A stretch of DNA of 64,000 nt from Candidatus Omnitrophota bacterium (GCA_043814605.1 JBDRJV010000037.1:31899-95898); one strand, 5' to 3'; shown: positions 1 through 64,000, counted from the stretch's first letter. Translations and numbers: made by a program. Notes: generated from the sequence alone by a model not told the origin.

Positions 1-53
1 AGTAAGTCTTGATTATTTAGCTATAGGAAATTTTTTGATTAAAGGAGAAAATA

Positions 54-833
54 ATGAAAAAAATAGATAATCGTAATTTATTTAAAAGATCACTTGATTG
101 GTTATTTAAAGAAGAAGATAATTCTTCTCAAAACTCGAGTGAAGAAGAAATCATTGAAATAAATATTTGGCAAATAGTAATAATTTTTATTCTGGTAGCC
201 GGGTTATTCTTGTTAAATATTTATCCTAAAATTGCAAAAAAATTTTTTCAAAGGCACAAAAATAGTAATTTTTCTTATGAATATATTGAAGAAAATATTG
301 AAAAAAATTATTTTGCTGGTAATCAAACAATTAAAAATGGTGATTTTAGCCAAGGGCTTATACACTGGAGCACATCTGATGGGGGAAAAGTTTTTAGAAA
401 TTCAAAGAGTAAAATGACTTTAGAAAAAAATGATTTTCATTCACCTCCCTACGCAATGAAAATCGAATCAATCGTACCGGCAAATCGATATTACTATACT
501 AAAACTGAGAATAGTGCGGTTATCAATAGTGCTTTTGATTTTTACGAAACTGAGCATTGGTTGGGTATTCTCCCTCAAGTTAATGCTAAATTGAGTTTGT
601 GGTATAAGGGGGATGTGCCGCGTGTATCATTGCACTGTCTGGATAAAAGGGGCAAATGGATAGGCTTAGGATCTGTTTCCGGGCCAGCTACAGATGAGTG
701 GACATATTTAGAAATTATGAAAAAAATACCGGAAAATGGCCGGGCGATAACATTTGATATTGTTTTAAATCAGGCTCAAGGCATGCCTCTTCCTGTAATT
801 ATCGTAGATGATGTTTTTTTATCAGTCGAGTAA
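54..833 (+). CDS. Membrane-anchored protein with a C-terminal CBM4_9/galactose-binding-like (jelly-roll) domain
   Basis: 259 aa ORF with the RBS-like aaaggagaa just upstream. It has one N-terminal TM helix (IWQIVIIFILVAGLFLLNIY). The C-terminal region opens with NGDFSQGLIHW, resembling the NG-x-FE-x-G-x3-W signature of CBM4_9-type domains. Motif-level call only. Confidence 0.4.
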   Translation: MKKIDNRNLFKRSLDWLFKEEDNSSQNSSEEEIIEINIWQIVIIFILVAGLFLLNIYPKIAKKFFQRHKNSNFSYEYIEENIEKNYFAGNQTIKNGDFSQGLIHWSTSDGGKVFRNSKSKMTLEKNDFHSPPYAMKIESIVPANRYYYTKTENSAVINSAFDFYETEHWLGILPQVNAKLSLWYKGDVPRVSLHCLDKRGKWIGLGSVSGPATDEWTYLEIMKKIPENGRAITFDIVLNQAQGMPLPVIIVDDVFLSVE

Positions 834-836
834 AAT

Positions 837-2510
837 ATGAGAGAAACTATAAATTTAAAACAAAACATAGATTCAAATAAAACATTTATAACTTTGCTTG
901 CTGTATTATTAGCATTCCACTTTTTTAGTAATGCTTATTTATTAACCAAAAATCCCTTACCAGAAGGTAAGGACAGTTATGCGCACATTATGGGTTATTT
1001 GAATTTTTCTGATATTTTACAACAACGAACCAAGAGTTTATTTTACCAACCAGAGAAAAGTTTATTTTATAACATATTTTTTTCTGTTTTTGACTATCCG
1101 GTATTTTTTTATTTAACTGTTTTTTTTATAAATATGATTTTCGGTAATTTTATATTTTATTGTATAATTTTTACTTCAACAGTATTTTTTTTACTGCTGT
1201 TAATCGCAGTTTATAAAATCGGATGTTTTCTCAACCCGCAAACAGGTATTTTAGCTGCGGTAATTTGTTCTTCTTTCCCGATTGTTTTTATTACAGCGCG
1301 ACATTTTAATTTAGAAATAGCTCTGAGTGCTTTAGTTTGTGTAAGTATCTGGATGCTATTAAGAACAAATTTTTTTACAGAACGCTTATTTTCTATTTTA
1401 CTGGGTATTATTTTAGGTTTAGGGATGTTAACGAAACAGTCTTTCCTGATATATGTTTTAGGACCGATCGCCATAATTTTATACAAATGTTTAGTAGTTC
1501 GCGATCGCGATATATTTTTTACAAGCATTAGGAATATTATTTTTTGCTTTGCAATTGCACTGCTTTTAAGCTTTTATTTTTATAGCCAAGGCGATATTTA
1601 TATGAATATTAACACAAGAATAAACTTTACTGGTGCAGTTAACGGCAATAATATTTTTCAAACACAACATTTGATGTATTATGTAAAATCATTAACATTA
1701 AGTTTAGGCTGGGGATTTACTTTGCTGTTAATATTTTCTTTATTTAGTATCAGGAAAATTACTCAACCGCTGCGGTTTTTACTAATTGCCTGGTTTATAT
1801 TTCCGTTATTAGTTTTTACTTTTATAAAAATTAAATATACTGAATATTCTATTGCCTATCTACCGGCAGCAGCGATAATTTCCGGATCAGCAATCAGTTT
1901 AATTAGAAATATTAAATTAAAAAAAATTTTAATAATTAGTATTTTAGTTATGGCTACAGTGAATTTTTTTATGTTATCTTATTTTAATTTTAAATCATTT
2001 TTTACCACATATTATTACCAAAATCTCAAAGGGGAACTTATTGAGAGTGATCAGATCACTGGGATAAGTCAGATCGAAAGGAAAACAGAATTTAAGGATT
2101 TGTTAAAAAAATTAGGCAATTCTGGCAAAGCAATAGGAATTTTTTATGATGATATAAACCTGCAATTCCCGGCTTATTTCACCAGGTTTATTAGTGTAGA
2201 AACAAAAAAACAAGTTCAAATATTGGATATGCTATTTCGCATCCCTTTATTTTTCAACAAGTTAGATCGGATTGACAGTTTAATTTTTGTTTCCTGCTCA
2301 GGGCAGGATTGGATCAGCGAGAAATCTTTTTTTAAGTTTGAGCAGGATTTAAATAAACAAACTTTTTACAGATACAAATTTAGACCGTATTTTTTGGAGA
2401 GAATCCTGGCGGCTAAAAAAAATTTTATATTAACGCACAAACTAGGTTTTGAAACCACAGGGAATAAATTGCAAAAGGAAAATATTTTTATTTATAAAAG
2501 GATGCCTTAA
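837..2510 (+). CDS. Polytopic GT-C-type glycosyltransferase (ArnT/PMT_2-like)
   Basis: 557 aa with many hydrophobic helices over the first ~380 aa, then a soluble C-terminal domain. The first loop contains an acidic residue (PLPEGKDSYAH). The architecture is typical of polyprenol-phosphate-sugar-dependent GT-C enzymes. It starts 4 bp after the previous gene. Confidence 0.5.
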   Translation: MRETINLKQNIDSNKTFITLLAVLLAFHFFSNAYLLTKNPLPEGKDSYAHIMGYLNFSDILQQRTKSLFYQPEKSLFYNIFFSVFDYPVFFYLTVFFINMIFGNFIFYCIIFTSTVFFLLLLIAVYKIGCFLNPQTGILAAVICSSFPIVFITARHFNLEIALSALVCVSIWMLLRTNFFTERLFSILLGIILGLGMLTKQSFLIYVLGPIAIILYKCLVVRDRDIFFTSIRNIIFCFAIALLLSFYFYSQGDIYMNINTRINFTGAVNGNNIFQTQHLMYYVKSLTLSLGWGFTLLLIFSLFSIRKITQPLRFLLIAWFIFPLLVFTFIKIKYTEYSIAYLPAAAIISGSAISLIRNIKLKKILIISILVMATVNFFMLSYFNFKSFFTTYYYQNLKGELIESDQITGISQIERKTEFKDLLKKLGNSGKAIGIFYDDINLQFPAYFTRFISVETKKQVQILDMLFRIPLFFNKLDRIDSLIFVSCSGQDWISEKSFFKFEQDLNKQTFYRYKFRPYFLERILAAKKNFILTHKLGFETTGNKLQKENIFIYKRMP

Positions 2511-3572
2511 ATGCTGCAAAGTATATATTTTCAATTAAATAATTTTATGGCTTTTTACAATCTTTTTTCAGTACGGCAAGCAGCCAGTTTTTTACAAAAT
2601 TTGCCGTTATCAATTAATTTATTGAGAACGGCAAAGTGTAATTTAAATTGCCGGATTTGCTCAGCTAAAGACATGCTTAATATAGGGAATGAATTAACCA
2701 CGGGTGAAATCATCAGCTTTATTGAAAAAAATGCAGAGTATAAACCGATTTTTTTTATCGGAGGAGGAGAACCTTTTATCCGTAAGGATATCCTGGAATT
2801 TGCCAGAGTGTTCAGCCGGAATAAATTAAAATACGGGATTGTTACTAATGGGACTTTGCTTAATCCCGAAATTATGGGTGAATTGTTCAATAATAAATTA
2901 AATGTGCTGATTTTTTCTTTACATGGCAATCAGCTGCAGCATGATAAGGTGACCGGTAAAAGTGGGGCATATAGTTTAATTAGTAATAATATAAAATTTG
3001 CTGCGAAAAATAAGAAAAGTACTAAAATAATTTTAAATTTTGTAATAAATGAGGAGAATTATTTACAGCTTGAGCAAATTATTAAATTTGGAAAAAATCA
3101 AGGAGTAAATCAAGTAAGAATTGAGCATTTAATTTTTTTAACAAAAAATGAATACAAGCAGCATTTAGAAGTTTGCCGGAAACTTTTTCCAAAGAACAAT
3201 ACAAATCTTGTAATTTTTAAAAAGGATATTAATAATTTGGAAATTGGTGATTTTTTAAAAAAAGAGATACCTCGCTTAAAAAAGAAATACAAAAATTTTG
3301 TTTTATTTAAACCGCATTTGAGTCAAGCTGAAATTGAATCATGGTATTGTGAGAATTTTCAATTAAATCGTAAGTGTTTTTTTGTGCAGCATTCAGTTTT
3401 TGTAAACCCAAACGGAGATATTGTTCCCTGTCAGTTTTTAGGAAATTATAAACTAGGGAATATCAAGGAGGTTGAGTTAGTTGATGCCTGGCGAAATAAA
3501 GCCAGTCAAAATATTAAAAAAACTTTAAAGCAAAAGATTTTACCCGGATGTAACCGATGCTGTAAATTATGA
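2511..3572 (+). CDS. Radical SAM enzyme with C-terminal SPASM/twitch-like Cys-rich domain
   Basis: CxxxCxxC motif in RTAKCNLNCRICSAK and a GGE motif in FIGGGEPFIRKD. C-terminal cysteines occur in NPNGDIVPCQFL and LPGCNRCCKL. Confidence 0.8.
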   Translation: MLQSIYFQLNNFMAFYNLFSVRQAASFLQNLPLSINLLRTAKCNLNCRICSAKDMLNIGNELTTGEIISFIEKNAEYKPIFFIGGGEPFIRKDILEFARVFSRNKLKYGIVTNGTLLNPEIMGELFNNKLNVLIFSLHGNQLQHDKVTGKSGAYSLISNNIKFAAKNKKSTKIILNFVINEENYLQLEQIIKFGKNQGVNQVRIEHLIFLTKNEYKQHLEVCRKLFPKNNTNLVIFKKDINNLEIGDFLKKEIPRLKKKYKNFVLFKPHLSQAEIESWYCENFQLNRKCFFVQHSVFVNPNGDIVPCQFLGNYKLGNIKEVELVDAWRNKASQNIKKTLKQKILPGCNRCCKL

Positions 3573-4117
3573 AAATTTTGTTAAATAAAAGTTATAACTT
3601 ATTAAGGGATATATATTTAGAAAGCATTAATTTTACGGATAAAACTAAGCTTTTAGATATCGGTTGCGGTTTGAGGGGTAATTTTCTAAAGCTGCCTAAA
3701 TTTGTGTATACAGGTGTTGATGCTAATAAACATATTATTGCTAAATTGAGAAAGAAATCAGATGGGCTATATGAGTGTATGGATGCGAATGATTTAAAAT
3801 TTGAAAATAACTTTTTTGATTACATAATATCAACGAGTTTTTTCCATCATTGCTCAAAGAATAATATTCGTGCGATAGTAGAGCAAATAAAAAAGATTTT
3901 AAAAGATTCGGGAAAAATAATTATTGCAGATGGGGTATATCCGGATTCTAAAATTAATATTTTAGGATATTTAATTAGATTTTTTGACCGGGGTAGATTC
4001 GTGAGAAGAAAAGATGAATTCAGAGAGTTATTTGAGAATTTTTTTATTGTTAAAAAAGAAGTTTATTTTGTGAATAAGTTTTTTGCATATTACGTATTAG
4101 TAATGGAAAAAAAATAA
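3569..4117 (+). CDS. Class I SAM-dependent methyltransferase (small, Methyltransf_11-like)
   Basis: Motif I is LLDIGCGLRGN. An acidic post-I residue and FDYIISTSFFHHC are present. ATGA overlap with the upstream gene. It resembles the second small methyltransferase at 53697-54290 (FDYIILNNVLHHM). Confidence 0.7.
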   Translation: MKILLNKSYNLLRDIYLESINFTDKTKLLDIGCGLRGNFLKLPKFVYTGVDANKHIIAKLRKKSDGLYECMDANDLKFENNFFDYIISTSFFHHCSKNNIRAIVEQIKKILKDSGKIIIADGVYPDSKINILGYLIRFFDRGRFVRRKDEFRELFENFFIVKKEVYFVNKFFAYYVLVMEKK

Positions 4118-4118
4118 G

Positions 4119-5555
4119 ATGATAAATCAGTTAAAACAAAAAAAAAATAATTCAGAACTTTTAGTGTTTACAGTAATTTTAGCCTGTGGATTTTTTATGC
4201 GGCTTTTTTCTTTAATAAATTCAGATAATTTCCATGGTATTGCGGCAGGTAAAATTTTTGAAGCTCGTTATTTGCTCAAACATCCAGAGGAGCTTTGGGC
4301 TTGGATTGTCCCGGCCCATGGGCCGGTGCATTTATACTTGATCGCAATTTTATTTAAAATATTTGGTGATTATATAATTATTGCAAGATTAATAAGTTTA
4401 TTTTCCGGAGTGGCCTTATTTTTTCCCTATTATAAACTGATCAAACTTTCCTTCAGCAGAGATATTGCGCTTTTTAGTTGTTTTATCGCAGCTTTTTTTT
4501 ACTTACATGTAATTTATAGTGTGATTTCGACTGCGGAATCAATTTTTATTTTATTTTTATTTTCGGGGTTGTATTTTTATTTTAAATATTTCCAAAGTCA
4601 AAGAGTTTTTGAGTTGATAATTTCTGCGCTTTGTGTAGGAGTTTCAAGTATGTGTCGATTTGAAGGAGGGTTATACATAGTTTTATTAAGTGCTTTTTTA
4701 ATAAAAAAACCAAAAATAATGTTGATTTTTTTAATAAGTTCCTGTATGTTGCCTTGGGTTTGGATAGTTTTTAATTTTATTTTGTACGGCGATTTTTTCT
4801 ATTTTTTAACATCAAGCGATAATATCGTAAAGTATGAATTTGATAACCTAAAAGTTTACGGAACTCAATATACAATAACCGAGAGAATTTTATATTGGCC
4901 AATGGTATTAAAAGGGTATTTTGGAAATATATTATTTATTTTCGGTATAATCGGGCTTTGGTCTAATTTTCGCAACGCTAAAACTAAACTGCTGTTAGTT
5001 CTATTCCTGAGTATTTTAGGTTTTTTTATTTTTAAAACTTTTTATAAAGAACTGGCAATGCAGCCGCGTTATGGATTAAGTCTCGGATGCTTATTCATCC
5101 CGTTTATTGCAGATGCCTTATTAACTGGCTATACAAGAGTAAAAAAAATTTCCAAAAATTTAATACTGGCTCGGGATCAATTTAAAATGCTATTTTTTTT
5201 AATTCTTTTTTATATAGTAATAAGAGGATCATATTTAAGTTTAGTGCAATTACCGCATACTCCTCTCTGGGTAGAGAAAACAGCTAAATTTCTTGCTGCT
5301 AATGTAGACGAAAATAAAAATGAATTAGTGTATATTGATTCTGATGATGATAATTTTATAGAGCCGATTAAAATTTTATCGGGACTGGATGTGGACAGTT
5401 TTGTGGATATGCAGGCAGAAGGAACACATAAAGAATTGATTGAATCAGCTTCTTTAAAAAATATTAAATATCGTATTTTAATTTCAAAAACCAGGAATCT
5501 TAATTTAAAACAAATTTTTCAAGCTTCTGATTGTAAAATTTATAAAATAAAGTAA
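4119..5555 (+). CDS. Polytopic GT-C-type glycosyltransferase (paralogue set with 5561 and 8297)
   Basis: 478 aa and multi-TM, with a soluble C-terminal domain. First-loop motif is SDNFHGIAAGK. It shares CRFEGG and QPRYGLSLG blocks with the next gene. Confidence 0.5.
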   Translation: MINQLKQKKNNSELLVFTVILACGFFMRLFSLINSDNFHGIAAGKIFEARYLLKHPEELWAWIVPAHGPVHLYLIAILFKIFGDYIIIARLISLFSGVALFFPYYKLIKLSFSRDIALFSCFIAAFFYLHVIYSVISTAESIFILFLFSGLYFYFKYFQSQRVFELIISALCVGVSSMCRFEGGLYIVLLSAFLIKKPKIMLIFLISSCMLPWVWIVFNFILYGDFFYFLTSSDNIVKYEFDNLKVYGTQYTITERILYWPMVLKGYFGNILFIFGIIGLWSNFRNAKTKLLLVLFLSILGFFIFKTFYKELAMQPRYGLSLGCLFIPFIADALLTGYTRVKKISKNLILARDQFKMLFFLILFYIVIRGSYLSLVQLPHTPLWVEKTAKFLAANVDENKNELVYIDSDDDNFIEPIKILSGLDVDSFVDMQAEGTHKELIESASLKNIKYRILISKTRNLNLKQIFQASDCKIYKIK

Positions 5556-5560
5556 ATTAT

Positions 5561-7057
5561 ATGTCAAATAAAATCACTAAAAGCAGCATCATTTTAATCC
5601 TGATAATAACCGCGATCTTTATAGGTTTAAGATTATTTTTATTACTGGACACGGATACTTTTCATGGTATTGCCGCAGGAAGAACTTTGCTTGCAGAATT
5701 AATATTAAGGAACGGTTTTTATTCAAAGTTATGCTTTGTTCCCGTACATCCGCCAATACATACAGTTATGCTAGTTGCGGGATTGTTTATCTGGAATAAT
5801 CCGATAATTTTACCTGGGTTAGTAAGTTTATTTTTCGGGACGCTTACTTGCCTTCCTTTTTATTACTATAACAAAAGTGTTTTTGATGAAAAAGTGGCTG
5901 TATTTTCGCTAGCAGCAATTAGTTTGTATTCTGATCATATTGCTTATAGTATTATTGGGACTTCAGAAACAATTTTTCATTTTTTTCTTTTCAGTAGTTT
6001 AGTTTTTGCTTTATTTTTTAAAAAAAACAAGAATATGCGGTATTTTTATCTGAGTGCAATAATGATTTCAATAGCTAGTTTATGCCGGTATGAAGGAATA
6101 ATATTTATCCCTTTTTTTTCTGTTTTTTTAACTAAGAAAATAAAAAATATTATTCTCTTTCTAATTGTTTCTTTAATTTTACCGGGTATATGGATGTGCG
6201 TAAATTTTTATTTTACCGGAAATTTTATATATTTTTTAAATACTAATGATATTACCGTACCTTTACAATTTAATTGGATGCGGTTGCAGGGGCTAGATAT
6301 AAACGTTACTTATAAAATTCTATTTTGGCCGCGAGTTTTAATCAATACAATAGGAGTATTTTTTCTTTTTTTTGGACTTGGGGGAGTTATCTTTTGTTTA
6401 AAGAGAGGAGAAAAATTATTTCCGGCAGGATTAGTCATATTTATATTATGTTTATTTGTATTAAGAACTTATCAAGAAAAACTCTATTTGCAGACTCGCT
6501 ACGGCATAACCATTGGTTTATTATTAATTCCTTTTGCAATTTACTTTTTTCAGGTTACTGTTAAAAAGATTAATCGTAACTTGCCGGACTGGTTAGTTTT
6601 ATTTTTACTTTTGACCCTGATTCCTGCCTGGGGAAAGACACTTTCCCAGGAAAGCTTATTTCTCCCGGATACAGTTAAAAATATAAGCAGTTTTTTAGGT
6701 AAAGAAGTTAAAGAAAATGAAAATATTTTTATAACTTCAGAACAAAATGAAAATTATCGTGAAGTGATAAAATTAAGAAGCCGTCTTAATCCTAAACAAT
6801 TTATACTAATTCCGTATCTTGAGCCGTATGAAAACAAATTTATTATAAAACTGGAAACATTTTTTCAATATTTAGAAAAAGAGAATATTAAGTTTTTTGT
6901 CTATTCTCCAGAGGGAGAGTTAGGAAATATTCTGAAATTTGAGGGAAAAGGGGAAAAGTTTAATATGAATGGGTTCTGGTTCAAGCTTATTTATAAAAAT
7001 AGATTATATCATATTTATAAGGTAGACCCTTTAAAAGAGGGGGTAGAAGATGTTTAA
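5561..7057 (+). CDS. Polytopic GT-C-type glycosyltransferase (tandem paralogue of 4119-5555)
   Basis: 498 aa. It carries TDTFHGIAAGR, CRYEGI and QTRYGITIG blocks collinear with the upstream gene. Multi-TM with a soluble C-terminus. Confidence 0.5.
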   Translation: MSNKITKSSIILILIITAIFIGLRLFLLLDTDTFHGIAAGRTLLAELILRNGFYSKLCFVPVHPPIHTVMLVAGLFIWNNPIILPGLVSLFFGTLTCLPFYYYNKSVFDEKVAVFSLAAISLYSDHIAYSIIGTSETIFHFFLFSSLVFALFFKKNKNMRYFYLSAIMISIASLCRYEGIIFIPFFSVFLTKKIKNIILFLIVSLILPGIWMCVNFYFTGNFIYFLNTNDITVPLQFNWMRLQGLDINVTYKILFWPRVLINTIGVFFLFFGLGGVIFCLKRGEKLFPAGLVIFILCLFVLRTYQEKLYLQTRYGITIGLLLIPFAIYFFQVTVKKINRNLPDWLVLFLLLTLIPAWGKTLSQESLFLPDTVKNISSFLGKEVKENENIFITSEQNENYREVIKLRSRLNPKQFILIPYLEPYENKFIIKLETFFQYLEKENIKFFVYSPEGELGNILKFEGKGEKFNMNGFWFKLIYKNRLYHIYKVDPLKEGVEDV

Positions 7058-8282
7058 ATTGTGCCGAGGCCGAATAATATTTTCAATGGATATATTCGGA
7101 GATTTAATTAAAAGTTTTTTTAGTAAAAAAAATAATGGAGAGTTAACTATTAAAAAATTTGAAGATGATTTTGCTCAATATATTGGCAGTAAACATGCAG
7201 TTGCGGTTGCTTCGGGTAAGATGGCATTGTATTTAACGTTGAAGGCATTAGGCGCAAAGGAGGGGGATCAGATTATTATTCCTGCCTATACAGTTAGCGA
7301 AGTTATTGATGTAATTATTCTTTGTAAATTAATACCGGTTTTTGTGGATATTAATCTTAAAGACGCGAATATTGATGTATCCTTGATTGAAAAAAGAATT
7401 ACTCCGAATACTAAATTTATCTTAATGGTACATATGTTTGGATGCCCCTGTGACATTGATGAAATAATTGCAATAAGCAAAAAATATAATCTTAAAGTTA
7501 TTGAAGATGGAGCTCAGAGCTGTGGGGCTGAATATAAAGGAAAAAAAATAGGAAGTTTTGGTGATATTGGGTATTTTAGCTTTGGCATCATGAAAAATTT
7601 AAATACATTAGGCGGGGGAATGATTGTAGCGCAAAATTCTGATCGAATAAATTTTATTAGAAAACAGATAAATAAGTTTTCTGAAAATTTGATGGGGCAA
7701 CTTTTTAAAAAAACGGTTTTAGTTTTTTTTGTATCTATACTAACTACGCCGGTTATATTCTCATTTGTAGTATATCCGTTACTATTTATTATCGAAGAGA
7801 ACAGAAGAGAAAAAATATTTAAGAGTTTATTTAAAGCTAGACCTGTAACAGCACAGTGTATGGAAAAGCTAAAAGTAAAATTTTCTCCTTATCAAGCGGC
7901 GATTGGCATAGCCGGCCTTAAAAAAATTGAACAGATAAATCAAAAGCGGATAAATAATGCTAAAGTTCTAAATCAGGCTCTTAATAATATCGATGGTGTT
8001 TCTTTGATTAAAGAATCAAGTGATTCAAAAAACATTTATTTAAACTATGTGATCCGCATTAATAACAGACAAAAACTAATTAATCGTATGTTTAATAAAG
8101 GAATTGATGTAAGTGCGGGGTTTATTGAATGCTGTCCGGATTTAGCCAGATTTGAGCTTTACCAGTGCGATTGTCCTAGAAGCAGGATTTGGGAAAAAGA
8201 AAATCTATATTTACCGGTTTATCATCCGCTGAAAAGAGAAGTAATGATAAAAATTTCGAAATTAATAAAGGAAGCATTGTGA
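7050..8282 (+). CDS. DegT/DnrJ/EryC1/StrS-family PLP-dependent sugar aminotransferase with an internal hydrophobic insertion
   Basis: AVASGKMALYLTLKALGAKEGDQIIIPAYT, VIEDGAQSCGAEYKGKKIGSFGDIGYFSFGIMKNL (candidate PLP lysine) and GGGMIV match the family. An alternative start is at 7086 (MDIFGDL). Confidence 0.8.
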   Translation: MFKLCRGRIIFSMDIFGDLIKSFFSKKNNGELTIKKFEDDFAQYIGSKHAVAVASGKMALYLTLKALGAKEGDQIIIPAYTVSEVIDVIILCKLIPVFVDINLKDANIDVSLIEKRITPNTKFILMVHMFGCPCDIDEIIAISKKYNLKVIEDGAQSCGAEYKGKKIGSFGDIGYFSFGIMKNLNTLGGGMIVAQNSDRINFIRKQINKFSENLMGQLFKKTVLVFFVSILTTPVIFSFVVYPLLFIIEENRREKIFKSLFKARPVTAQCMEKLKVKFSPYQAAIGIAGLKKIEQINQKRINNAKVLNQALNNIDGVSLIKESSDSKNIYLNYVIRINNRQKLINRMFNKGIDVSAGFIECCPDLARFELYQCDCPRSRIWEKENLYLPVYHPLKREVMIKISKLIKEAL

Positions 8283-54971: not shown

Positions 54972-54978
54972 AGAGGAA

Positions 54979-55898: not shown

Positions 55899-56273
55899 GT
55901 GAGCTTAAAAAAGACACTCATATTTGCTGTAATAACCACTTGTTTATCTATAAGTTATGTTAATCAACAAATTTCTGTGGTTAAACTAAGTTATCAACTT
56001 CGGAGTAAAGAAAAAAACCTGTCTGAACTAATTGACCAAAATAGAATTTTATTATATAATAATGCCAGCCTAAAATCACCACAGTATTTAGCCGGAATGC
56101 TCAAAGAAAATGATCAAGAATTAACATTTCCGGATACTACTGTTGTGGCAAAAGTAAAAATGGTGAGAAAAGATCACAGGCAGCAGGTGAAAACAACGAA
56201 AAGTAACTGGAGAACTAAATTGCTTGATTTGTTTATTCCTAAAGCACAAGCAGCGTTAGATAAAAGACAATAG
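55899..56273 (+). CDS. ftsL: Cell division protein FtsL-like
   Basis: 124 aa with a GTG start after aggggg. It has a single N-terminal TM helix (LIFAVITTCLSISYV) followed by a coiled-coil-like segment. It sits in the canonical position between rsmH and ftsI. Confidence 0.7.
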   Translation: MSLKKTLIFAVITTCLSISYVNQQISVVKLSYQLRSKEKNLSELIDQNRILLYNNASLKSPQYLAGMLKENDQELTFPDTTVVAKVKMVRKDHRQQVKTTKSNWRTKLLDLFIPKAQAALDKRQ

Positions 56274-56335
56274 TTTTTCTCTTCTGCTTCACCAAAAATT
56301 AATTACTTCCTAAATATAAGGATATATTAAAAAAA

Positions 56336-58021
56336 GTGTATAAAAAGGCGCAAAAAATTCGCCTGAGTATAGTTTTTTTCTTTTTTCTTTTAATTCTCCT
56401 AATTATTCTAGTTCGTCTGCTGAATATTCAGGTTCTGAATAATCAGCATTATTTAGAGCTAGCTGATTCGCAACATCATCTAACCTTAACTCTTTATCCG
56501 CAAAGAGGATTAATCTATGACCGAAATCTGAAGGTTTTGGCGTTGAGTTTAAAAGTTTTTTCTGTGTATGCCGAGCCAAGATTAATTGATAATAAATTAG
56601 AAGTAGCGCAAAAATTGGCGGATCTATTAGATTTAGATTATGATAAAACTTTAACCCAGCTTCAAAAGGATAAATCATTTGTTTGGATAAAAAGAAGGAT
56701 TGAGCAAAATCAGGCACAAGCAGTTAATGATTTAAAATTGTATGGAGTGGGATTATTAAAGGAAAATAAACGCTATTATCCGAATAATGAATTAGCAGCG
56801 CATGTATTAGGATTTACGGGAATTGATGATTCCGGGCTGGAAGGACTGGAACTAGAGTATGATTCATATTTAAAAGGAGAATCAGGTTATCGGTCGTTAC
56901 TGCGTGATGCTAAGCAAAGGATGTTGCCTGCTTTTGAGTATGAGTATGTTCCGGCAATGGATGGATATAATTTAGTCTTAACAATTGATCAGATAATTCA
57001 ACATATTGTTGAGGAAGAGTTAAATAAAGCATTTGATAAAAATCAGGCAAAGGGAGCTTCCGTACTTGTTATGAATCCTGAAAACGGAGAGATTTTTGCT
57101 TTAGCTAATCGCCCGGGGTATGATTTAAATTTATTTGAAACTGCAACTTCAGACCAAAGACGCAATCGGGCAGTGTGTGATTATTTTGAACCTGGTTCTA
57201 CCTTTAAAATTATTACAGCCACCGCAGCTTTGTCCGAAAAAGCTGTTGAACTTGATGAGGTATTTTTTTGCGAAAATGGAACTTATCAAATTTCCCGGCA
57301 TACATTGCATGATCATCGGCCACACGGGGATTTAACATTTGTTGAGGTTATTGAAAAATCAAGTAATATTGGTACAGTAAAAGTCGCGCAAAAACTGGGA
57401 GCAGAAGTATTATATAAATATATTAAAAATTTTGAATTTGCGGAAAAAACTAGTATTGATTTATCCGGGGAAACTGCCGGGTTTTTAAGGCCGGTAGCTG
57501 GTTGGTCAAAATTATCAATTGCAGCTATTCCCATTGGACATGAAATTGGAGTTTCAGTTTTACAAATGGCCAAAGCTATGGCGGTAATTGCCAATGGCGG
57601 ATATTTAGTTAAACCGCATCTAGTAAATAAAATAATTGATAATAACCAGCAAATCATAAAGGAATTTGATTATTCACAAAAAAAATCCATTATTTCACCG
57701 GATATTGCTAAAAAAATGCAGGAAATTTTAAAAGGAGTTGTTGAACGCGGTACGGCTAAAAAAGCAAAAATTGATGGATATACAGCTGCAGGAAAAACAG
57801 GTACAGCCCAAAAATTAAATCCTCAAGGCGGGTACTCACATGATCTGTTTATCGCATCTTTTATCGGATTTGCTCCGGTCAAAAATCCAAAGGTTGTAAT
57901 TGCGGTTGTTTTTGATGAACCCAAGCCGGTTTATTATGGCGGGGTTGTGTGTGCTCCAATTTTTAAAAATATAGCCGAAAAAGTGTTAAGATATATGAAT
58001 ACAGAAAAAGAAAGTAAATAA
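56336..58021 (+). CDS. ftsI: Penicillin-binding protein (class B transpeptidase, FtsI/PBP3-like)
   Basis: N-terminal TM anchor. SxxK (GSTFK), SxN (SSN) and KTG (KTGTA) motifs appear in the correct order. Canonical dcw position. Confidence 0.9.
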   Translation: MYKKAQKIRLSIVFFFFLLILLIILVRLLNIQVLNNQHYLELADSQHHLTLTLYPQRGLIYDRNLKVLALSLKVFSVYAEPRLIDNKLEVAQKLADLLDLDYDKTLTQLQKDKSFVWIKRRIEQNQAQAVNDLKLYGVGLLKENKRYYPNNELAAHVLGFTGIDDSGLEGLELEYDSYLKGESGYRSLLRDAKQRMLPAFEYEYVPAMDGYNLVLTIDQIIQHIVEEELNKAFDKNQAKGASVLVMNPENGEIFALANRPGYDLNLFETATSDQRRNRAVCDYFEPGSTFKIITATAALSEKAVELDEVFFCENGTYQISRHTLHDHRPHGDLTFVEVIEKSSNIGTVKVAQKLGAEVLYKYIKNFEFAEKTSIDLSGETAGFLRPVAGWSKLSIAAIPIGHEIGVSVLQMAKAMAVIANGGYLVKPHLVNKIIDNNQQIIKEFDYSQKKSIISPDIAKKMQEILKGVVERGTAKKAKIDGYTAAGKTGTAQKLNPQGGYSHDLFIASFIGFAPVKNPKVVIAVVFDEPKPVYYGGVVCAPIFKNIAEKVLRYMNTEKESK

Positions 58022-59527
58022 ATGTTAGCTTCAGAAATAATAAAACTTCTAAAAATTAAGCCCCAGGCTAAAAATTTTGTAGATTTTGAAGTCAAAGGCA
58101 TTAGTATTGATTCTCGTAATGTCGCAAATGATTTTTGTTTTATCGCTCAAGACGGAACTAAAACAAACGGATATGAATTTATTCAAGCGGCGATAGAAAA
58201 AGGGGCACGTTTGATTATTTATCCTGAATTTTATCCTGAACCTAAAATTAATTCCTTAGAATTAGCAAAGAAGACAATTTTCCTAAAAACTGATAATCTG
58301 CGCAAAGTTACCGGGCTAATTGCGGCGGAATTTTTCCAGAGGCCTTCCCGTAATTTACAAATGATTGGGGTAACAGGCACTAACGGAAAAACAACAGTTA
58401 CTTTTTTTATTGAACATTTACTCAAAAAAAATCAAATTAAAACGGGCATGATTTCTACTGTCTATTACAAAATTGATGATCATATTATTGATGCGACCCA
58501 TACTACCCCGGATGCGATAAAACTACAGCAGTTATTTTTTAATATGATTAATCATAATATTTCCCATTGTGTTATGGAAGTTTCCTCCCATGCTTTAGAC
58601 CAGAAAAGGGTTTCAGAAATTGATTTCCAATGTGCAGTGTTTACGAATTTGAGTCAAGATCATTTAGATTACCATGTGGATATGGAAAATTATTTTAAGA
58701 CAAAAGCACAATTGTTTAAACGTCTTAGTAAAAATAGTTTTGCCGTAATAAATACGGATGATCCTTGCGGTATCCGGCTTAAAAAAATTACTCAAGCAAA
58801 AATTATTGGTTATGCGGTTATGGATAAAAATGCAACTGTCCGGGCACAAAATATAGTTTTTGATTTAAATTCAACAACTTTTGATATAATCACACCCGCA
58901 GGTATACTGCCGGTTAAGACTAAATTTATCGGCCGCTATAATATTTATAATATTTTAGCTTGTATTTGTGTAGGGCTTGCCCAAAATATTGAATTAAATT
59001 CTATTGTTAAAGCAATCCAAACCATGGATTCTGTTCCGGGAAGATTAGAAAGATTATCAAATAATAACATTTTTGAGATTTTTGTTGATTATGCTCATAC
59101 GGATGATGCATTAACTAAAGTTTTGACAACTTTAAAAGAACTAAAACCGCATAAGATTATTACAGTTTTTGGCTGCGGGGGAAATCGAGATACAAAAAAA
59201 AGGCCGCTTATGGGTAAAGCCGCAAGTTTGTTGTCAGATTTTTTGATTTTAACTAATGATAATCCGCGTAATGAAAACCCGGAAAAAATCATTGCAGATA
59301 TTCAGTCAGGGTTTGAGGTTAGTTTTAAAAATTTTGAAGTAATTTTAGACAGAAAAAAAGCAATCGAAAAAGCAATCACAAGAGCGCAACAGGATGACTT
59401 TATTTTAGTTGCCGGTAAAGGACATGAAAATTACCAAATTTTTGGTGATAAGAAAATTGATTTTGATGATCGAAAAATAATAAAGGATCTCCTGCTGACT
59501 AGCCCCAAGCTTACCTTAGGAGAATGA
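58022..59527 (+). CDS. murE: UDP-N-acetylmuramoyl-L-alanyl-D-glutamate--2,6-diaminopimelate ligase
   Basis: GVTGTNGKTT P-loop and DYAHTDDAL. The DNPR motif (TNDNPRNE) is characteristic of meso-DAP-adding MurE. Position is after ftsI. Confidence 0.9.
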   Translation: MLASEIIKLLKIKPQAKNFVDFEVKGISIDSRNVANDFCFIAQDGTKTNGYEFIQAAIEKGARLIIYPEFYPEPKINSLELAKKTIFLKTDNLRKVTGLIAAEFFQRPSRNLQMIGVTGTNGKTTVTFFIEHLLKKNQIKTGMISTVYYKIDDHIIDATHTTPDAIKLQQLFFNMINHNISHCVMEVSSHALDQKRVSEIDFQCAVFTNLSQDHLDYHVDMENYFKTKAQLFKRLSKNSFAVINTDDPCGIRLKKITQAKIIGYAVMDKNATVRAQNIVFDLNSTTFDIITPAGILPVKTKFIGRYNIYNILACICVGLAQNIELNSIVKAIQTMDSVPGRLERLSNNNIFEIFVDYAHTDDALTKVLTTLKELKPHKIITVFGCGGNRDTKKRPLMGKAASLLSDFLILTNDNPRNENPEKIIADIQSGFEVSFKNFEVILDRKKAIEKAITRAQQDDFILVAGKGHENYQIFGDKKIDFDDRKIIKDLLLTSPKLTLGE

Positions 59528-60939
59528 TGGTTACACCGGTTGTAAGCCGGGAACGGAAAGATATGTTTAGACTTAATGAAATAGTTAAATGGACAAACGC
59601 ACAATCAGTTAATATGAGTTCAGATAGGCCTATCTGCGGAATTTCGATTGATTCGCGTACAATAAAGAAGGCAGAATTATTTGTGGCGATTTGTGGTGAT
59701 AAATTTAATGGGCATGATTATTTATTTGAGGCAGAAGAAAAAAGAGCAAGTGCTGTTTTAATCAATAAAAAATGGGCAGATTTCCACCCGGATCAGATTA
59801 ACGGGCTTTCCTGTCCGGTAATTTTAGTGGAAAATACAAATAACGCATTGATGGATATGGCAAAAGGACACCGGAAAAAATTTAATATTCCAGTAATTGC
59901 TGTAACTGGATCAAACGGGAAAACCACAACCAAAGAAATGCTCGCAGAAGTTCTCAGTGCCCGATTTAAGGTATTAAAGAGCAAGGCTTCTTTTAATAAT
60001 AATATTGGTGTTCCGCTGAGTATCCTCGAACTTAATGCTGGACATGATGCTGCTGTATTAGAATTAGGCATGAATCATCCCGGTGAAATTCGCATTTTGA
60101 GTTCAATTGTTAGGCCAAATATTGCAATTATCACTAATGTTGCGGCAGCTCATCTCGGATTTTTCAACAGCGTTGATGAGATTATCAGTGCTAAATGTGA
60201 ATTAATTGAAAAAGCAAATGAACTTGATTTAGTGATTTCTAATGCTGATTGCCTAGATTTGTTTCATAAAATTAAAGAACATATTTTATCTGCTGTAGGG
60301 ATAGGAATTAAAAATAAGTGCTCTTACCAGGCATCCAATGTTATCAGCCGTCAAGAAGGGGTAGCTTTTACCTTGAACTTAAAGGACACATTTAGGTTGA
60401 ATTTATTGGGTGAGCATAATGTTTACAATGCGTTGTGCGCGATTGCGGTTGCGGATCATTTTAAAATTGATATGAGTATAGTACGGGAAAGACTAAAAGA
60501 AATAAAACCGGCTAAAATGAGAATGGAAAGAATTAATTTTCAAGGTATAGAAATAATTGCCGATTGCTATAATGCTAACCCCCAGTCTGTAACCGCAGCG
60601 ATTGAAACGCTTGCGGCGATGAGTTATAAGAAAAGACGGATATTTATTTTAGGCGATATGCTTGAATTAGGAACACATAGTGATAAATTCCATGCACAAA
60701 TCGGAGAACTTTTTACGGATATAAGAATAGATAAGCTGGTTACAATCGGTGAAAAAGCAGCGTTAAGCGCAGAGGTTGCGCTTAAATTAGGAAATAAAAA
60801 AAATAATGTGTTTATGTATGATTCCGTAGAATTAGCTCAGACAGAAATATTTCAAATGCTAAAAGAGGGGGATGTGGTTTTAATCAAAGGATCACGCCTA
60901 ATGCAATTAGAAAAACTTATTCCTGGTTATAAATTATAG
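59524..60939 (+). CDS. murF: UDP-N-acetylmuramoyl-tripeptide--D-alanyl-D-alanine ligase
   Basis: AVTGSNGKTTTKEM, LELGMNHPGEI, DCYNANP and GDMLELG. ATGA overlap with murE. An alternative start is at 59563 (MFRLNEI). Confidence 0.9.
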   Translation: MMVTPVVSRERKDMFRLNEIVKWTNAQSVNMSSDRPICGISIDSRTIKKAELFVAICGDKFNGHDYLFEAEEKRASAVLINKKWADFHPDQINGLSCPVILVENTNNALMDMAKGHRKKFNIPVIAVTGSNGKTTTKEMLAEVLSARFKVLKSKASFNNNIGVPLSILELNAGHDAAVLELGMNHPGEIRILSSIVRPNIAIITNVAAAHLGFFNSVDEIISAKCELIEKANELDLVISNADCLDLFHKIKEHILSAVGIGIKNKCSYQASNVISRQEGVAFTLNLKDTFRLNLLGEHNVYNALCAIAVADHFKIDMSIVRERLKEIKPAKMRMERINFQGIEIIADCYNANPQSVTAAIETLAAMSYKKRRIFILGDMLELGTHSDKFHAQIGELFTDIRIDKLVTIGEKAALSAEVALKLGNKKNNVFMYDSVELAQTEIFQMLKEGDVVLIKGSRLMQLEKLIPGYKL

Positions 60940-60953: not shown

Positions 60954-61658
60954 ATGTTTCTTATGCGATATTTCATAAAAAAAATTCTGACATTAATTTT
61001 AGTTTTTTTATTTTTAGGAGTGTTTGATAAAAGTTTTGCTGAAGATTTATCAGAATATTTTCCTCTAGCTATAGGCAATGAATGGCATTATGAGCAAAAT
61101 TCAACTGATGATTTGTTTATTGTAAAAGCAGAAAAAGCTGCTTCTAATCATTTCTTTAATAATCAAGATATAATAAAGCTTGTTAATAGCGAATTAAGCT
61201 CAATTTATTTACAAAAAACGATAAATGGGATTATATTCTTAGGAAACTCTTCTGTAAAAAGTGATTTTAATTTTTATAATAAGAAACCGTTAATGTTTCT
61301 ACCTTTTAACAAAAAATATTATAAATATGGAATTATGGAAGAAGAAACAGAAATTTATATGCCGGAAAATAATTCTGACAATGTAGCTGAAATTAAGTTG
61401 AATGTCAAAGTGTGTGGAAAGGAAAACGTGTTCGTAAAAGCAGGAGATTTTTTTAATTGCTATAAATTAATTTCTACTATTACCATCTATAACAAAATTA
61501 ATAATTTTATTTATATTTTTACTGAATATGGCTGGTATGGAAAAGGGGTGGGAAAGGTAAAATATGTTTTAAAATTATCTTTTTTAAACCAGGGGCAAAT
61601 TGATACTCAAACCCAACTTTTTGAACTTAAGGAATGTTTTATTACCAGTAATCATTAA
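60954..61658 (+). CDS. Secreted hypothetical protein inserted between murF and mraY
   Basis: Signal peptide-like N-terminus (ILTLILVFLFLGVFDKSFAED). Collinear blocks are shared with 18132-18968. No known dcw function. Confidence 0.45.
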   Translation: MFLMRYFIKKILTLILVFLFLGVFDKSFAEDLSEYFPLAIGNEWHYEQNSTDDLFIVKAEKAASNHFFNNQDIIKLVNSELSSIYLQKTINGIIFLGNSSVKSDFNFYNKKPLMFLPFNKKYYKYGIMEEETEIYMPENNSDNVAEIKLNVKVCGKENVFVKAGDFFNCYKLISTITIYNKINNFIYIFTEYGWYGKGVGKVKYVLKLSFLNQGQIDTQTQLFELKECFITSNH

Positions 61659-61681
61659 AATATTAGCAAAGGTTACTTGTT

Positions 61682-63130
61682 ATGAATAAAAGAAAAAAAA
61701 TTTTAATTGTACTAGGTCTGCTAGGAAGCGTTATTTGTTTTATTTGCTCAGATTTGTTTTTTATGAATTTATCTTTTTTTCTGATTGATAATTTTCAGAA
61801 AAAATTAGATAGTTATGTGAATGCAGTGAATTTTGAATTAGCAAGTAATAAATATCAATTTTTAGGAGGGAACAGAGAAAAATACTTATTAAAAGACCAG
61901 AATAATAACTTATGGCTTTTTAAGGTCACAGATGATTCTACAGTTGATAGAGTAGTTTTTTTTAATAAAATTATTATTTTTTTGGGAGTGGAAACTCCGC
62001 TGCTTTGCCGATATGAAATGTATATAAATAATATTAAGAAAAGAGGGTATCTTCAGAGTTTTTTAAAAAAATATAAAGATCCTGTAAATAAGCTTATGGA
62101 AAAAGATGATTTTAGTAAAAGAATCTATCCGAAAATTGTAAGAAATGAGCTTCTCGCCTGGATTTTTTTTATGAAAATTTCTCAGAATATAATTGATGAT
62201 AAAACTCAAATTTATTTTATTGATTTAGATAATGCATTTGCTTTAAAAAATAAAGTTAAAAACAATGAGCCTAGTGATAAAGATTTAAAATACCTAGAAT
62301 CTTTCTTCAGCATATTAGAAGGAGACAATAAAAAGTTTATTTATTCATTCGTAGATTGTTTATCCATGTTGAATAAAGACTATTTATTAAATCAGATGAA
62401 AAAAGAAGTAAAAACAGCTAAGGGGCATTTTTTTGTGGACATCAAACATTTTATAAATCGAAAAAATAAGCTAGGTACTTTTTGTAAGACATTGGAAGAT
62501 AATGATATTTTTTTTTATAACAGATTTTTTTATAAGATGAATGTTTTGAAATGTTTATTTAGAAAATTTGGAAGTCATTCGATGCGAATTGGTGATAAAA
62601 AAAACAAGGGGAATCATTCGATTGCTGTAATTGGATCTTCTGATTGTTGGAATTATTTTAATAAAAATTGTAATTATAAAATAATTAATGGGGTATCGCA
62701 AAAAGAACTTTCTATTATTCGCAAACAGATAATTAGCCAACTTTTAGTGATAAGAATGAGTAAGGCTTTAGTTGAGGAAAAACTGGCGGCAACAATTTAT
62801 ATCATGCAGTTTAATGCTTTTTTAAATTATTTTAAAAACTCAAATATTCCTGATAATGATGGCGTTTACCCGCCATTTTTTTTTAGTGAATCGATTATTC
62901 AAGTAGTTCAAAGTGTAGATTCATTTGTAAATTTGAAAAATATTGAAGAGCATTATTTCTTTAAAAAATTTAAATATACTAATTATTTAAGCTATGAGCC
63001 AGGAGAAAAGGCTTATATTTATGGATTAATTAATAGGCTGCAGGGAAATAACCGCGAAGCTTTAAATTTTTTTAACCAGGCTTTAAATAATCAATATGCT
63101 ACGGAAGAAATACAGTATATAATAAATTAA
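61682..63130 (+). CDS. Membrane-anchored hypothetical protein (possible kinase-like core, TPR-like C-terminus) inserted between murF and mraY
   Basis: 482 aa with an N-terminal TM helix (ILIVLGLLGSVICFICSDLFF). GGNREKYLLKD..LWLFKV and IYFIDLDNAF loosely resemble the glycine-loop/lysine and DFG-like elements of PI3/4K- or HipA-like kinases. The C-terminus YIYGLINRLQGNNREALNFFNQALN is TPR-like. Confidence 0.35.
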   Translation: MNKRKKILIVLGLLGSVICFICSDLFFMNLSFFLIDNFQKKLDSYVNAVNFELASNKYQFLGGNREKYLLKDQNNNLWLFKVTDDSTVDRVVFFNKIIIFLGVETPLLCRYEMYINNIKKRGYLQSFLKKYKDPVNKLMEKDDFSKRIYPKIVRNELLAWIFFMKISQNIIDDKTQIYFIDLDNAFALKNKVKNNEPSDKDLKYLESFFSILEGDNKKFIYSFVDCLSMLNKDYLLNQMKKEVKTAKGHFFVDIKHFINRKNKLGTFCKTLEDNDIFFYNRFFYKMNVLKCLFRKFGSHSMRIGDKKNKGNHSIAVIGSSDCWNYFNKNCNYKIINGVSQKELSIIRKQIISQLLVIRMSKALVEEKLAATIYIMQFNAFLNYFKNSNIPDNDGVYPPFFFSESIIQVVQSVDSFVNLKNIEEHYFFKKFKYTNYLSYEPGEKAYIYGLINRLQGNNREALNFFNQALNNQYATEEIQYIIN

Positions 63131-63176
63131 GAAATTAAATTTAATTGTGAATGAAGTTATAAGTTAGGAGATACAT

Positions 63177-64000
63177 CATGTTTTATCATTGGCTTTATCC
63201 TTTGCGCGAATATTTTTTCGGGTTCAATGTTTTTAAATATATTACTTTTCGTGCTGCGGGAAGTGCTGTAACTGCGTTTATTCTTAGTATAATGATGGGA
63301 AAATTTGTTATTCAACTGCTTAAAAAATTTAATATCGGTGAATCAGTACGAAAGGATAAATACTGCGCTACGCTTTATGAGCATCATAAAGAAAAGGAAG
63401 GTACCCCCACAATGGGCGGGGTTCTGATTTTGCTGGTTGTTCTGATTGCAGTATTATTATGGGCTAATCTTTCTAATAAGTATATTTGGATTGTTTTATT
63501 TGCAACGTTGTGGCTGGGAGCAGTGGGGTTTATTGATGATTATATTAAATTAACTCAGAAAAATTCCCGCGGTCTTACCGCAACCGTAAAATTAACCGGC
63601 CAATTAATACTAGGTATTGTTGTGGGATTTATTATTTATTATGATCCTTATTTGGGGGATCAATTGAATATTCCTTTTTTTAAAAACTTTGTTGTGCATC
63701 TGGGATTTATCTATATATTTTTTTCTGCACTTGTAATTATCGGAACTTCTAATGCCGTAAATCTTACAGATGGCTTGGATGGTTTAGCGATTGGGTGTGT
63801 TTTAATTGTGGCGATAACCTACAGCGGGATGAGTTATTTGACTGGCCATTTTAAATTTTCTCAATATTTACAAATGAATTATATCCCCGGAGTGGGAGAA
63901 TTAACAATTTTCTGTACCGCTGTTTTTGGCGCGGGATTAGGGTTTCTCTGGTACAATTGCCATCCGGCGGATGTGTTTATGGGAGATACAGGGGCTTTAG
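63177..64000 (+). CDS. mraY: Phospho-N-acetylmuramoyl-pentapeptide transferase MraY (3' end beyond window)
   Basis: Not in the ORF track because no stop lies within the window. ATG 63177 sits 6 nt after the aggaga RBS. My translation is MFYHWLYPLREYFFGFNVFKYITFRAAGSAVTAFILS...HKEKEGTPTMGG...NAVNLTDGLDGLA, which contains hallmark MraY motifs. Confidence 0.9.

Follow-up and report, generated by a model that had tools for sequence, protein, structure and literature searches.

The window studied here, a 64,000-nucleotide stretch of a Candidatus Omnitrophota genome (GCA_043814605.1 JBDRJV010000037.1:31899-95898; positions counted from its first letter), carries a 43-gene locus for envelope-glycan tailoring (g01-g43) followed by the beginning of the cluster for division and the cell wall (dcw), with every gene on the plus strand. 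We interpret this layout as several operons in a row, all co-directional, on the leading strand of a genome whose genes are strongly co-oriented, the row being lengthened by tandem duplication and succeeded by an independently promoted, MraZ-controlled dcw cluster, a reading to which we assign a probability of about 0.75. Lineage-wide co-orientation of genes, presumably with replication, would set the same-strand layout, and operon packing inside the locus would add coupled junctions and predicted blocks of 14 and 18 genes. Tandem duplication would have contributed further head-to-tail copies on the same strand: with gene families assigned by Pfam and paralogy by within-locus comparison, 30 of the 43 locus genes fall into within-locus paralogue families of 9, 6, 3, 3, 3, 2, 2, and 2 members. 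The dcw genes would be expressed separately from their own promoter under MraZ, with read-through from the locus possible but neither required nor conserved, and the position of the glycan locus beside mraZ would be synteny inherited within one Omnitrophota clade.

Every gene of the window lies on one strand

The plus strand holds 51 complete open reading frames (ORFs) of at least 100 aa and a truncated mraY from 63178, which together make 52 genes and fill ~97% of the 64 kb (GC content of the window, 29%). The five longest minus-strand ORFs (124, 114, 113, 105, and 104 aa) are each antisense and nested in a plus-strand gene, and the eight longest gave no Pfam match at E ≤ 0.1. ARAGORN detected no tRNA or tmRNA gene in the whole window, Rfam returned no family at gathering thresholds and also none at E ≤ 1 over 41.4-54.6 kb, and the intergenic gaps contained no plausible small ORF on either strand. 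The initial annotation had placed all 52 genes on one strand and had found no credible minus-strand gene in 64 kb; both statements are borne out by the 51 complete genes plus partial mraY and by minus-strand ORFs of at most 124 aa with no Pfam, tRNA, or Rfam match, in scans that do not strictly exclude short or non-coding minus-strand genes.

All 32 of the 2-kb bins show a positive GC skew, which is as strong at neutral sites as overall, with values of +0.277 at four-fold sites, +0.274 in intergenic sequence, and −0.02 at codon position 2. Because the skew is strong at four-fold and intergenic sites and about −0.02 at position 2, it is mutational and not driven by amino acids. Reversed genes in the relatives described below are C-rich on their coding strand (pooled four-fold skew of −0.21 vs +0.01 for co-directional genes, from few sites), and the sequences suggest that part of the skew follows the DNA strand rather than the direction of transcription. 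It is general for dcw clusters to point away from the origin. Judged by the sign of the skew and by analogy, the plus strand would be the leading strand, an assignment that is well supported but not proven; the same placement in the initial annotation thus stands as probable (skew of +0.27 at neutral sites, every 2-kb bin positive).

Co-orientation extends across the sampled lineage

The best RsmH matches among species-representative genomes, at 63-75% identity, are mostly from Omnitrophota metagenome-assembled genomes (MAGs), one of them labelled "uncultured Planctomycetia". The 20-kb loci of close relatives (L001-L007) contain 15-19 ORFs each, all co-directional save one reversed gene each in L001 and L004. 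These are the only reversed genes in these loci and encode homologous 500-aa proteins of the radical S-adenosylmethionine (rSAM)-SPASM type (L001, 4345-5847, minus strand; L004, 7514-9016, minus strand).

The pattern recurs well away from the glycan locus. In L008, from a more distant member of the Omnitrophota, 21 of 21 genes are co-directional, and the upstream genes scanned include ligA, truB, ribF, and genes for metallo-beta-lactamase-fold, XerC-like, CCA-adding, and NrnA-like DHH proteins, which are functionally unrelated and would not be taken for a single operon. A scan of metagenome contigs with the LigA of L008 yielded 19 low- to mid-GC loci (0.37-0.52) of 15-22 kb, 90-100% co-directional, with 0-10% minus-strand coding (none in 7 of the 19) and a positive GC skew in 18 of the 19, up to +0.18; the high-GC contigs in the scan were mixed. 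Co-directional genes number 11 of 11 in L088 and 16 of 17 in L087, the latter including dnaK, dnaJ, grpE, hrcA, and clpB. Variants of the rSAM-rich locus (L081 and L084-L086) are likewise uniform (18/18, 16/16, 16/16, and 12/12) despite their rearranged gene order.

Over the 10 kb upstream of mraZ, minus-strand coding amounts to 0-18% in Omnitrophota and Atribacterota loci and 21-90% in those of Chloroflexota, Desulfobacterota, and Acidobacteriota, with a median of 49% over all 32 loci. Three Atribacterota loci (L028, L048, and L050) are fully co-directional over this distance, and several phyla that have received little study may have a strong gene-strand bias in common. At a co-orientation of ~96% per gene, a 52-gene run has a probability of 0.12 under independence and a higher one with operon clustering; at such a rate, a run of this length is not surprising for the lineage. 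As read from these sequences, strand monotony is a lineage trait and not specific to the locus, because it is equally seen across unrelated housekeeping genes of the relatives. A literature search on strand bias in Omnitrophota returned nothing directly relevant, and strand bias is not reported in a 2026 preprint on complete Omnitrophota genomes, 176 in number (bioRxiv 10.64898/2026.06.07.730766).

Overlapping junctions and large gaps suggest several transcription units

The genes of the window are joined by many overlapping or nearly contiguous junctions. ATGA junctions (overlap of 4 nt, i.e., −4) lie exactly at 3569 (3569..3572), 12250, 13140, and 59524. Single-nucleotide overlaps occur as TAATG at 17362 and 38199 and as TGATG at 27512, where the coordinate is that of the A common to stop and ATG, and overlaps of 8, 8, 11, and 14 nt occur at 7050, 14245, 30448, and 33882 (the last covering 33882..33895). 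The locus stop at 54290 and the mraZ ATG at 54531 are separated by 240 nt. Each junction given in the initial annotation, the 240-nt spacing before mraZ included, was present, and two overlaps absent from it were added, GTGA at 32930 (−4) and one of 7 nt at 50091.

Overlaps account for 11-15 of the 51 junctions, a typical fraction (the range comes from doubtful starts), and 31 of the 51 junctions are ≤10 nt. Six of the 41 junctions in the range from −20 to +50 nt are of the −4 type (Poisson P ~3e-5 vs a flat distribution). An excess of −4 junctions is a general prokaryotic pattern that has been attributed to translational coupling (PMC2716372), and the ATGA and TAATG-type junctions within the locus are predicted to allow it. 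Several of the starts that form these junctions have independent support: a GT2 glycosyltransferase domain begins at residue 5 from start 12250 and at residue 7 from start 38199, a twin-arginine signal supports start 13140, a zinc ribbon from residue 4 anchors start 33882, and ATG 27512 agrees with a 447-aa product at NCBI. For two genes the longest ORF, from TTG 8189 (−94) and from TTG 18949 (−20), probably begins too far upstream. MurF could begin at its second or its fourteenth Met, an ambiguity that makes the overlap at 59524 uncertain.

Transcription units were predicted from intergenic distance, which divides the window into 10 units at a threshold of >50 nt and 6 units at >100 nt. Five gaps are large (381, 286, 240, 220, and 205 nt), and lesser gaps measure 100, 68, 68, and 62 nt. 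At >50 nt, the predicted units are g1-14, g15-16, g17-34, g35, g36-38, g39, g40-42, g43, mraZ-ftsL, and PBP-mraY, where PBP is a penicillin-binding protein. The locus is built as follows (GT, glycosyltransferase; B12-rSAM, B12-binding rSAM protein).

54-54290, plus strand: envelope-glycan tailoring locus, g01-g43
54..15675, plus strand: block g01-g14, all junctions ≤6 nt; PMT_2-type GT-C, rSAM-SPASM, SAM methyltransferase, DegT, GT1, B12-rSAM, GT2, DUF362 protein with a twin-arginine (TAT) signal, ArnD-like polysaccharide deacetylase
15776..18063, plus strand: g15-g16, PMT_2 membrane glycosyltransferase and WbqC-family protein, TAATG overlap at 17362; both preceded by a gap of 100 nt
18132..41591, plus strand: block g17-g34, 18 genes with a largest internal gap of 48 nt; conserved locus core
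41592..41972: largest gap, 381 nt, a probable transcription-unit boundary; short inverted repeats, e.g., around 41846-41865
41973..47167, plus strand: g35-g38, AmmeMemoRadiSam-type rSAM with a twin-arginine signal, two B12-rSAM, one rSAM
47388..48833, plus strand: g39, B12-binding rSAM, with gaps of 220 and 286 nt on either side
49120..53491, plus strand: g40-g42, GT2 (g40), Wzy_C O-antigen-ligase-like protein with C-terminal TPR (g41), polytopic membrane protein without family match (g42)
53697..54290, plus strand: g43, SAM-dependent methyltransferase, the last gene of the locus, with flanking gaps of 205 and 240 nt

Operons of 14-18 genes, and possibly of 34 if the 68- and 100-nt gaps form no boundary, are plausible in the first 41.5 kb. 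The initial annotation had proposed very long operons, and its proposal survives for the tight blocks, with their 31 junctions of ≤10 nt, but not for one continuous unit, since distance predicts 6-10 units and five gaps reach 205-381 nt. All 52 genes of the window do share a strand, as a single operon demands; its other marks, a short distance at every junction and freedom from internal promoters or operators, are broken by these five gaps and by a conserved promoter with a triple GTGG motif before mraZ, and in L004 a minus-strand rSAM-SPASM gene stands before mraZ.

Terminator-like sites numbered 11 in the window (6.2 expected), none of them in a gap on the plus strand, and folding upstream of T-runs in the gaps gave weak hairpins only; consensus scans of this kind carry little information in sequence of 29% GC. 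The large gaps contained no riboswitch (e.g., cobalamin, given the nine B12 enzymes) in Rfam at gathering thresholds or at E ≤ 1. In the 381-nt gap at 41592-41972, neither an ORF nor an Rfam match was present, and its sequence is not conserved in the corresponding gap of L001. Conserved promoters before g35 and g40 were considered and rejected, as alignments with the relatives lack conservation comparable to that of the mraZ upstream region.

A predicted promoter and MraZ operator, both conserved, precede the dcw cluster

The region between the locus and mraZ and the dcw genes that follow contain these features.

54291..54530, plus strand: locus-dcw intergenic region, 5' part not conserved, last ~150 nt conserved
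54387..54398: perfect 12-nt palindrome ACAATATATTGT, ~70 nt upstream of the mraZ −35 element
54467..54494, plus strand: sigma70-type promoter TTGACG-16 nt-TATATT (Pmra equivalent), −35 and −10 conserved in relatives
54502..54525, plus strand: three GTGG boxes with a 10-nt period, GTGGTTAAAAGTGGAGGAAAGTGG, in the stretch from the −10 element to the mraZ ATG, the last box finishing 6 nt short of it
54531..60939, plus strand: start of dcw, with mraZ, rsmH (probable start 54979), an ftsL-like gene, class B PBP (FtsI), murE, and murF
60954..63130, plus strand: two genes between murF and mraY, for a secreted protein with a weak DUF3108-like match and a 482-aa protein without family match
63178..64000, plus strand: 5' part of mraY, which runs past the window end

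The last ~150 nt before mraZ are conserved between the window and seven clade members, independent of the gene that lies upstream, and this conservation ends abruptly beyond. Counted back from the mraZ ATG, the promoter and the GTGG module together span 6-64 nt. A search of both strands of the 64 kb for GTGGN6GTGGN6GTGG gave this one occurrence against 0.00 expected, and a triple GTGG lies at the matching position in L001-L005 and L007-L011; L006 begins inside rsmH and so has no upstream sequence for this comparison. In Bacillus subtilis, the MraZ-binding repeats are three GTGG[A/T]G elements with 4-nt spacers, which are required for repression of Pmra by MraZ (bioRxiv 10.1101/2022.02.09.479790). 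The triple GTGG of the window corresponds to this arrangement and can be predicted to serve as MraZ-binding repeats downstream of a putatively active promoter. With a conserved promoter and a triple GTGG operator, the level of dcw expression is expected to depend on autoregulation by MraZ, and dcw would form an autonomous regulatory unit, presumably MraZ-autoregulated.

Upstream of the promoter, the palindrome ACAATATATTGT is conserved, with a 14-nt form, CACAATATATTGTG, in most relatives (aligned in L001-L005, L007, and L081), and a conserved AT-rich block lies between it and the −35 element. Palindrome and AT-rich block look like a candidate regulator-binding site for dcw in the clade.

The cluster itself follows the order mraZ-rsmH-ftsL-ftsI-murE-murF-mraY, as established by Pfam, by MurE and MurF orthologues of 41-57% identity, and by colinear relatives. 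The insertion of two tightly packed genes between murF and mraY is found in the window only; murF is directly followed by mraY in all relatives examined, and no homologue of either inserted gene was present in 86 loci (L001-L086).

The glycan locus adjoins mraZ in one clade

In L001-L005 and L081, the region upstream of mraZ carries homologues of both g40 (GT2) and g41 (Wzy_C/TPR), which share the strand of mraZ. In L007, where the contig stops 884 nt upstream of mraZ, only the g41 homologue is visible. Variable rSAM and GT genes are located farther upstream, and the stretch between the g41 homologue and mraZ varies as well: L001-L003 and L081 have no gene there, L005 has a GT2 gene, the window has g42 and g43, and L004 has the reversed rSAM-SPASM gene. 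This reversed gene between locus and mraZ means that co-transcription is not a conserved feature. As a separate observation, the homologous rSAM-SPASM genes of L001 and L004 are located at different positions, as if moved or inverted independently.

Elsewhere in the phylum, a housekeeping array, ligA...truB-ribF, precedes mraZ, as seen in L008 and L009 and in no fewer than 14 metagenome contigs. The order ligA...truB-ribF-mraZ is the commoner arrangement in the phylum and would be the ancestral one. Since the link between the glycan locus and dcw is confined to one clade, it represents local synteny and not general coupling. The initial annotation had suggested that envelope tailoring and cell-wall synthesis are physically, and possibly transcriptionally, linked; comparison of the junction across relatives upholds the physical link in the seven close relatives (L001-L005, L007, and L081) but places other genes before mraZ in L008, L009, and the at least 14 contigs, and a transcriptional link is countered by the dcw cluster's own promoter and by the reversed gene of L004.

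The locus also has counterparts on other contigs, although a metagenome scan with g01 gave no match. L084 (Omnitrophota MAG contig JAKLQT010000198.1) is colinear with g17-g33 at 36-66% identity and has retained, within the g27-g33 module, overlaps of −4, −8, and −1; elsewhere in the block it has gaps of 320 and 540 nt. The seven-gene module at 31866-40139 (DegT, rSAM-SPASM, Tes-like rSAM, two B12-rSAM, GT2, and DegT) is colinear with L084 13120-21392 at 52-59% identity, and the start/stop overlaps are kept there too. The rSAM-rich locus type recurs in the Omnitrophota contigs L081, L084, L085, and L086. With regard to the ligA neighborhood, many Omnitrophota-like contigs (L090-L146, the LigA loci) have the order ligA...truB-ribF-mraZ in common and, ~7 kb upstream of ligA, two small reversed genes that are conserved as a pair, e.g., at 2351-3384 in L094; this looks like the ancestral surroundings of dcw in the phylum.

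Weighing the alternatives

Several points weigh against a leading-strand series of operons with a separately promoted dcw cluster. The relatives' loci cover few neighborhoods (dcw, ligA, the rSAM locus, and two others) and are no random genome sample, and the gene calls for most relatives are crude longest-ORF calls. Within the window, no origin, terminus, or strand switch is visible. The skew of reversed genes comes from few sites, and the closest relatives are mixed, with L001 in support (−0.14 vs +0.27) and L004 neutral. Promoter-like matches occur at chance level in this AT-rich sequence (87 found, 99.9 expected), so only the conserved mraZ promoter carries weight, and unit boundaries other than that promoter are set by distance alone. 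Finally, the locus-dcw gap lacks a convincing intrinsic terminator, with only a 5-bp stem and T6 at ~54303-54334; with no strong terminator seen, some read-through from the locus into dcw is possible.

That last point bears on the view that one or two super-operons span the region, with transcription running from far upstream in the locus through mraZ and dcw and co-expressing decoration and cell-wall/division genes. Such transcription would agree with the co-direction of all genes, with 31 of 51 junctions at ≤10 nt, with the lack of a strong intrinsic terminator in any gap (54291-54530 included), and with a glycan locus that adjoins mraZ in seven relatives. We nevertheless consider it unlikely: the five gaps of 205-381 nt are atypical within operons, the conserved promoter and MraZ operator stand directly before mraZ, a reversed gene intervenes in L004, housekeeping genes and not the locus lie upstream of mraZ in most sampled Omnitrophota, and L084 has its gaps of 320 and 540 nt in a block that is tightly packed in the window. 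Slightly less probable again is a horizontally acquired 54-kb island inserted before mraZ, whose gene orientation would stem from the donor element and not from replication-linked selection. The absence of the locus from this position in L008 and L009 and in 14 or more further Omnitrophota-like contigs, the gene content that varies among close relatives, and the GC minimum (0.25) at 50-54 kb are what such an island would leave; however, no integrase, transposase, tRNA, or flanking repeat was detected in the window, codon usage of the locus matches that of the dcw core (relative synonymous codon usage, r of 0.91-0.93; GC at third codon positions, 0.22-0.27), GC skew is continuous over the locus-dcw junction, and non-island genes of the relatives are co-directional too. 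Identities to L001 are 46-49% for g34, g35, and g40 vs 47-56% for MurE and MurF, and such a divergence, close to that of the less conserved part of dcw, agrees with vertical descent in the clade. A recent horizontal acquisition of the locus was considered in its own right and is unlikely, given codon usage, third-position GC, and skew like those of dcw and no mobility genes. An artefact, whether minus-strand genes that were missed or a mis-assembly of unrelated same-strand pieces, is the least credible explanation by a wide margin: plus-strand ORFs with family matches cover 97% of the window, the longest minus-strand ORF has 124 aa, the eight longest have no family match, there is no tRNA or Rfam match, and the gene order recurs in independent assemblies.

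A radical-SAM-dominated envelope locus

Leading-strand gene runs, ATGA-type junctions, and an MraZ-controlled dcw promoter are textbook architecture, and the layout itself matters little; it is a known architecture in a new organism. Very strong co-orientation, together with a strong GC skew, in the sampled Omnitrophota and three Atribacterota contigs was not reported in the literature searched. The recurrent rSAM-dominated envelope locus is a more promising target than the strand pattern, and no description of this locus type was found in the literature.

rSAM genes make up 20 of the 43 locus genes, starting at the following positions.

First ten, plus strand: 2511, 10787, 20818, 22287, 23388, 24753, 26145, 27512, 28860, 30448
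Last ten, plus strand: 32930, 33882, 35228, 36739, 40167, 41973, 43235, 44660, 46178, 47388

They comprise nine B12-binding proteins (22-41% mutual identity), six with the zinc ribbon PF23545, several of the SPASM or a related type, and one AmmeMemoRadiSam. The glycosyltransferases of the locus are five PMT_2-type GT-C, of which Pfam identified four and paralogy the fifth, together with one GT1 and three GT2; three DegT aminotransferases, WbqC, a polysaccharide-deacetylase/DUF3473 protein, the TAT-signal DUF362 protein, and two SAM methyltransferases complete the set of tailoring genes, alongside several polytopic membrane or secreted proteins without family match. In the whole window, Pfam found neither a Wzx flippase nor an ABC exporter nor an initiating phosphoglycosyltransferase, although these could lie outside it. 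The locus thus differs from a Wzx/Wzy-type O-antigen or capsule locus, of which the Wzy_C-domain protein g41 is the only such component in the window.

The AmmeMemoRadiSam-family rSAM protein (41973-43166) scores 231 bits against a cut-off of 220 and carries the twin-arginine motif SRRNFLK, and the DUF362 protein (13140-14252) carries the motif TRREFLQ; their sequences suggest that both contain Fe-S clusters and are exported to the periplasm. Genes for the partners AMMECR1 and Memo are absent from the window. GC content is lowest in the window (0.25-0.26) at 48000-54000, the segment of GT2, Wzy_C/TPR, membrane-protein, and methyltransferase genes adjoining dcw. Surface-glycan loci typically show such low GC content at their variable end.

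The six zinc-ribbon rSAM proteins are encoded as follows.

23388..28855, plus strand: four tandem paralogues with zinc ribbon and rSAM, 56-60% identical, related to GDGT-MAS/Tes
30448-31851 and 33882-35222, plus strand: two further Tes-related paralogues

All six have an N-terminal zinc ribbon, PF23545, and an rSAM core. One of them, g21, matches GDGT-MAS (PDB 7TOL) with E=3.5e-40 over residues 6-340, and it scores 150 bits against Tes (NCBIfam NF045702; cut-off 450), with TrsS scoring equally well. In the alignment, g21 is gapped at the Cys-rich segment of 7TOL, GCPYDCGLCPNH. A role of the six as true tetraether synthases is rejected on the NCBIfam score and the missing Cys-rich insert. By sequence, they are a divergent subfamily and members of the wider PF23545-plus-rSAM family only. 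The subfamily is rare, as a word-based search returned 14 matches including three window proteins, and four of the five other matches with a named source come from Omnitrophota/Omnitrophica. The rSAM lipid enzymes Mss and Hbs have been noted in Omnitrophota MAGs.

The point of interest may thus be content more than strand monotony. Tentatively, and at well below even odds, the product of the locus could be an envelope glycan or glycolipid without precedent, with heavy C-methylation or C-C cross-linking, and its fixed site before mraZ in one clade might allow some read-through coupling to cell-wall growth.

Comparison with known systems

According to Rocha, replication-oriented gene-strand bias with long same-strand runs is reportedly strongest in Firmicutes, Mollicutes, and other PolC-bearing lineages. 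The window resembles these in its run of more than 50 genes, its G-rich coding strand (+0.27 at neutral sites), and the placement of essential dcw genes on the same strand; it differs in belonging to the phylum Omnitrophota, for which the bias is known here from sampled loci.

Long, packed operons for envelope and other functions include epsA-O of B. subtilis, the cps loci of Streptococcus pneumoniae, and the fla/che operon of B. subtilis (~30 genes). Co-directional genes and many −4/−1 overlaps or junctions of <10 nt are shared with the window, which also has glycosyltransferases, aminotransferases, Wzy_C, and methyltransferases. In contrast, 20 of the 43 locus genes in the window are rSAM genes, no Wzx, ABC exporter, or initiating transferase is present by Pfam, and five large gaps interrupt the run. 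The Arn tailoring system consists of the aminotransferase ArnB, the polyprenyl-phosphate glycosyltransferase ArnC, the deformylase ArnD, and the GT-C transferase ArnT. At the level of Pfam families, the window offers three DegT proteins, small GT2 enzymes, a polysaccharide-deacetylase-family protein, and five PMT_2-type GT-C, a likeness by family only and not by orthology, and it differs in its many paralogues and many rSAM partners. With GDGT-MAS/Tes, the six zinc-ribbon paralogues share the zinc ribbon and the rSAM core, whereas their genes sit within a sugar-modification locus and not a lipid locus.

The dcw cluster of the window is close to the dcw/Pmra systems of Escherichia coli, B. subtilis, and Mollicutes in gene order, in its sigma70-type promoter, and in the three GTGG boxes before mraZ. 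It departs from them in the two extra genes between murF and mraY, in the 12-14-nt palindrome and AT-rich block before the −35 element, and in the rSAM-rich glycan locus upstream.

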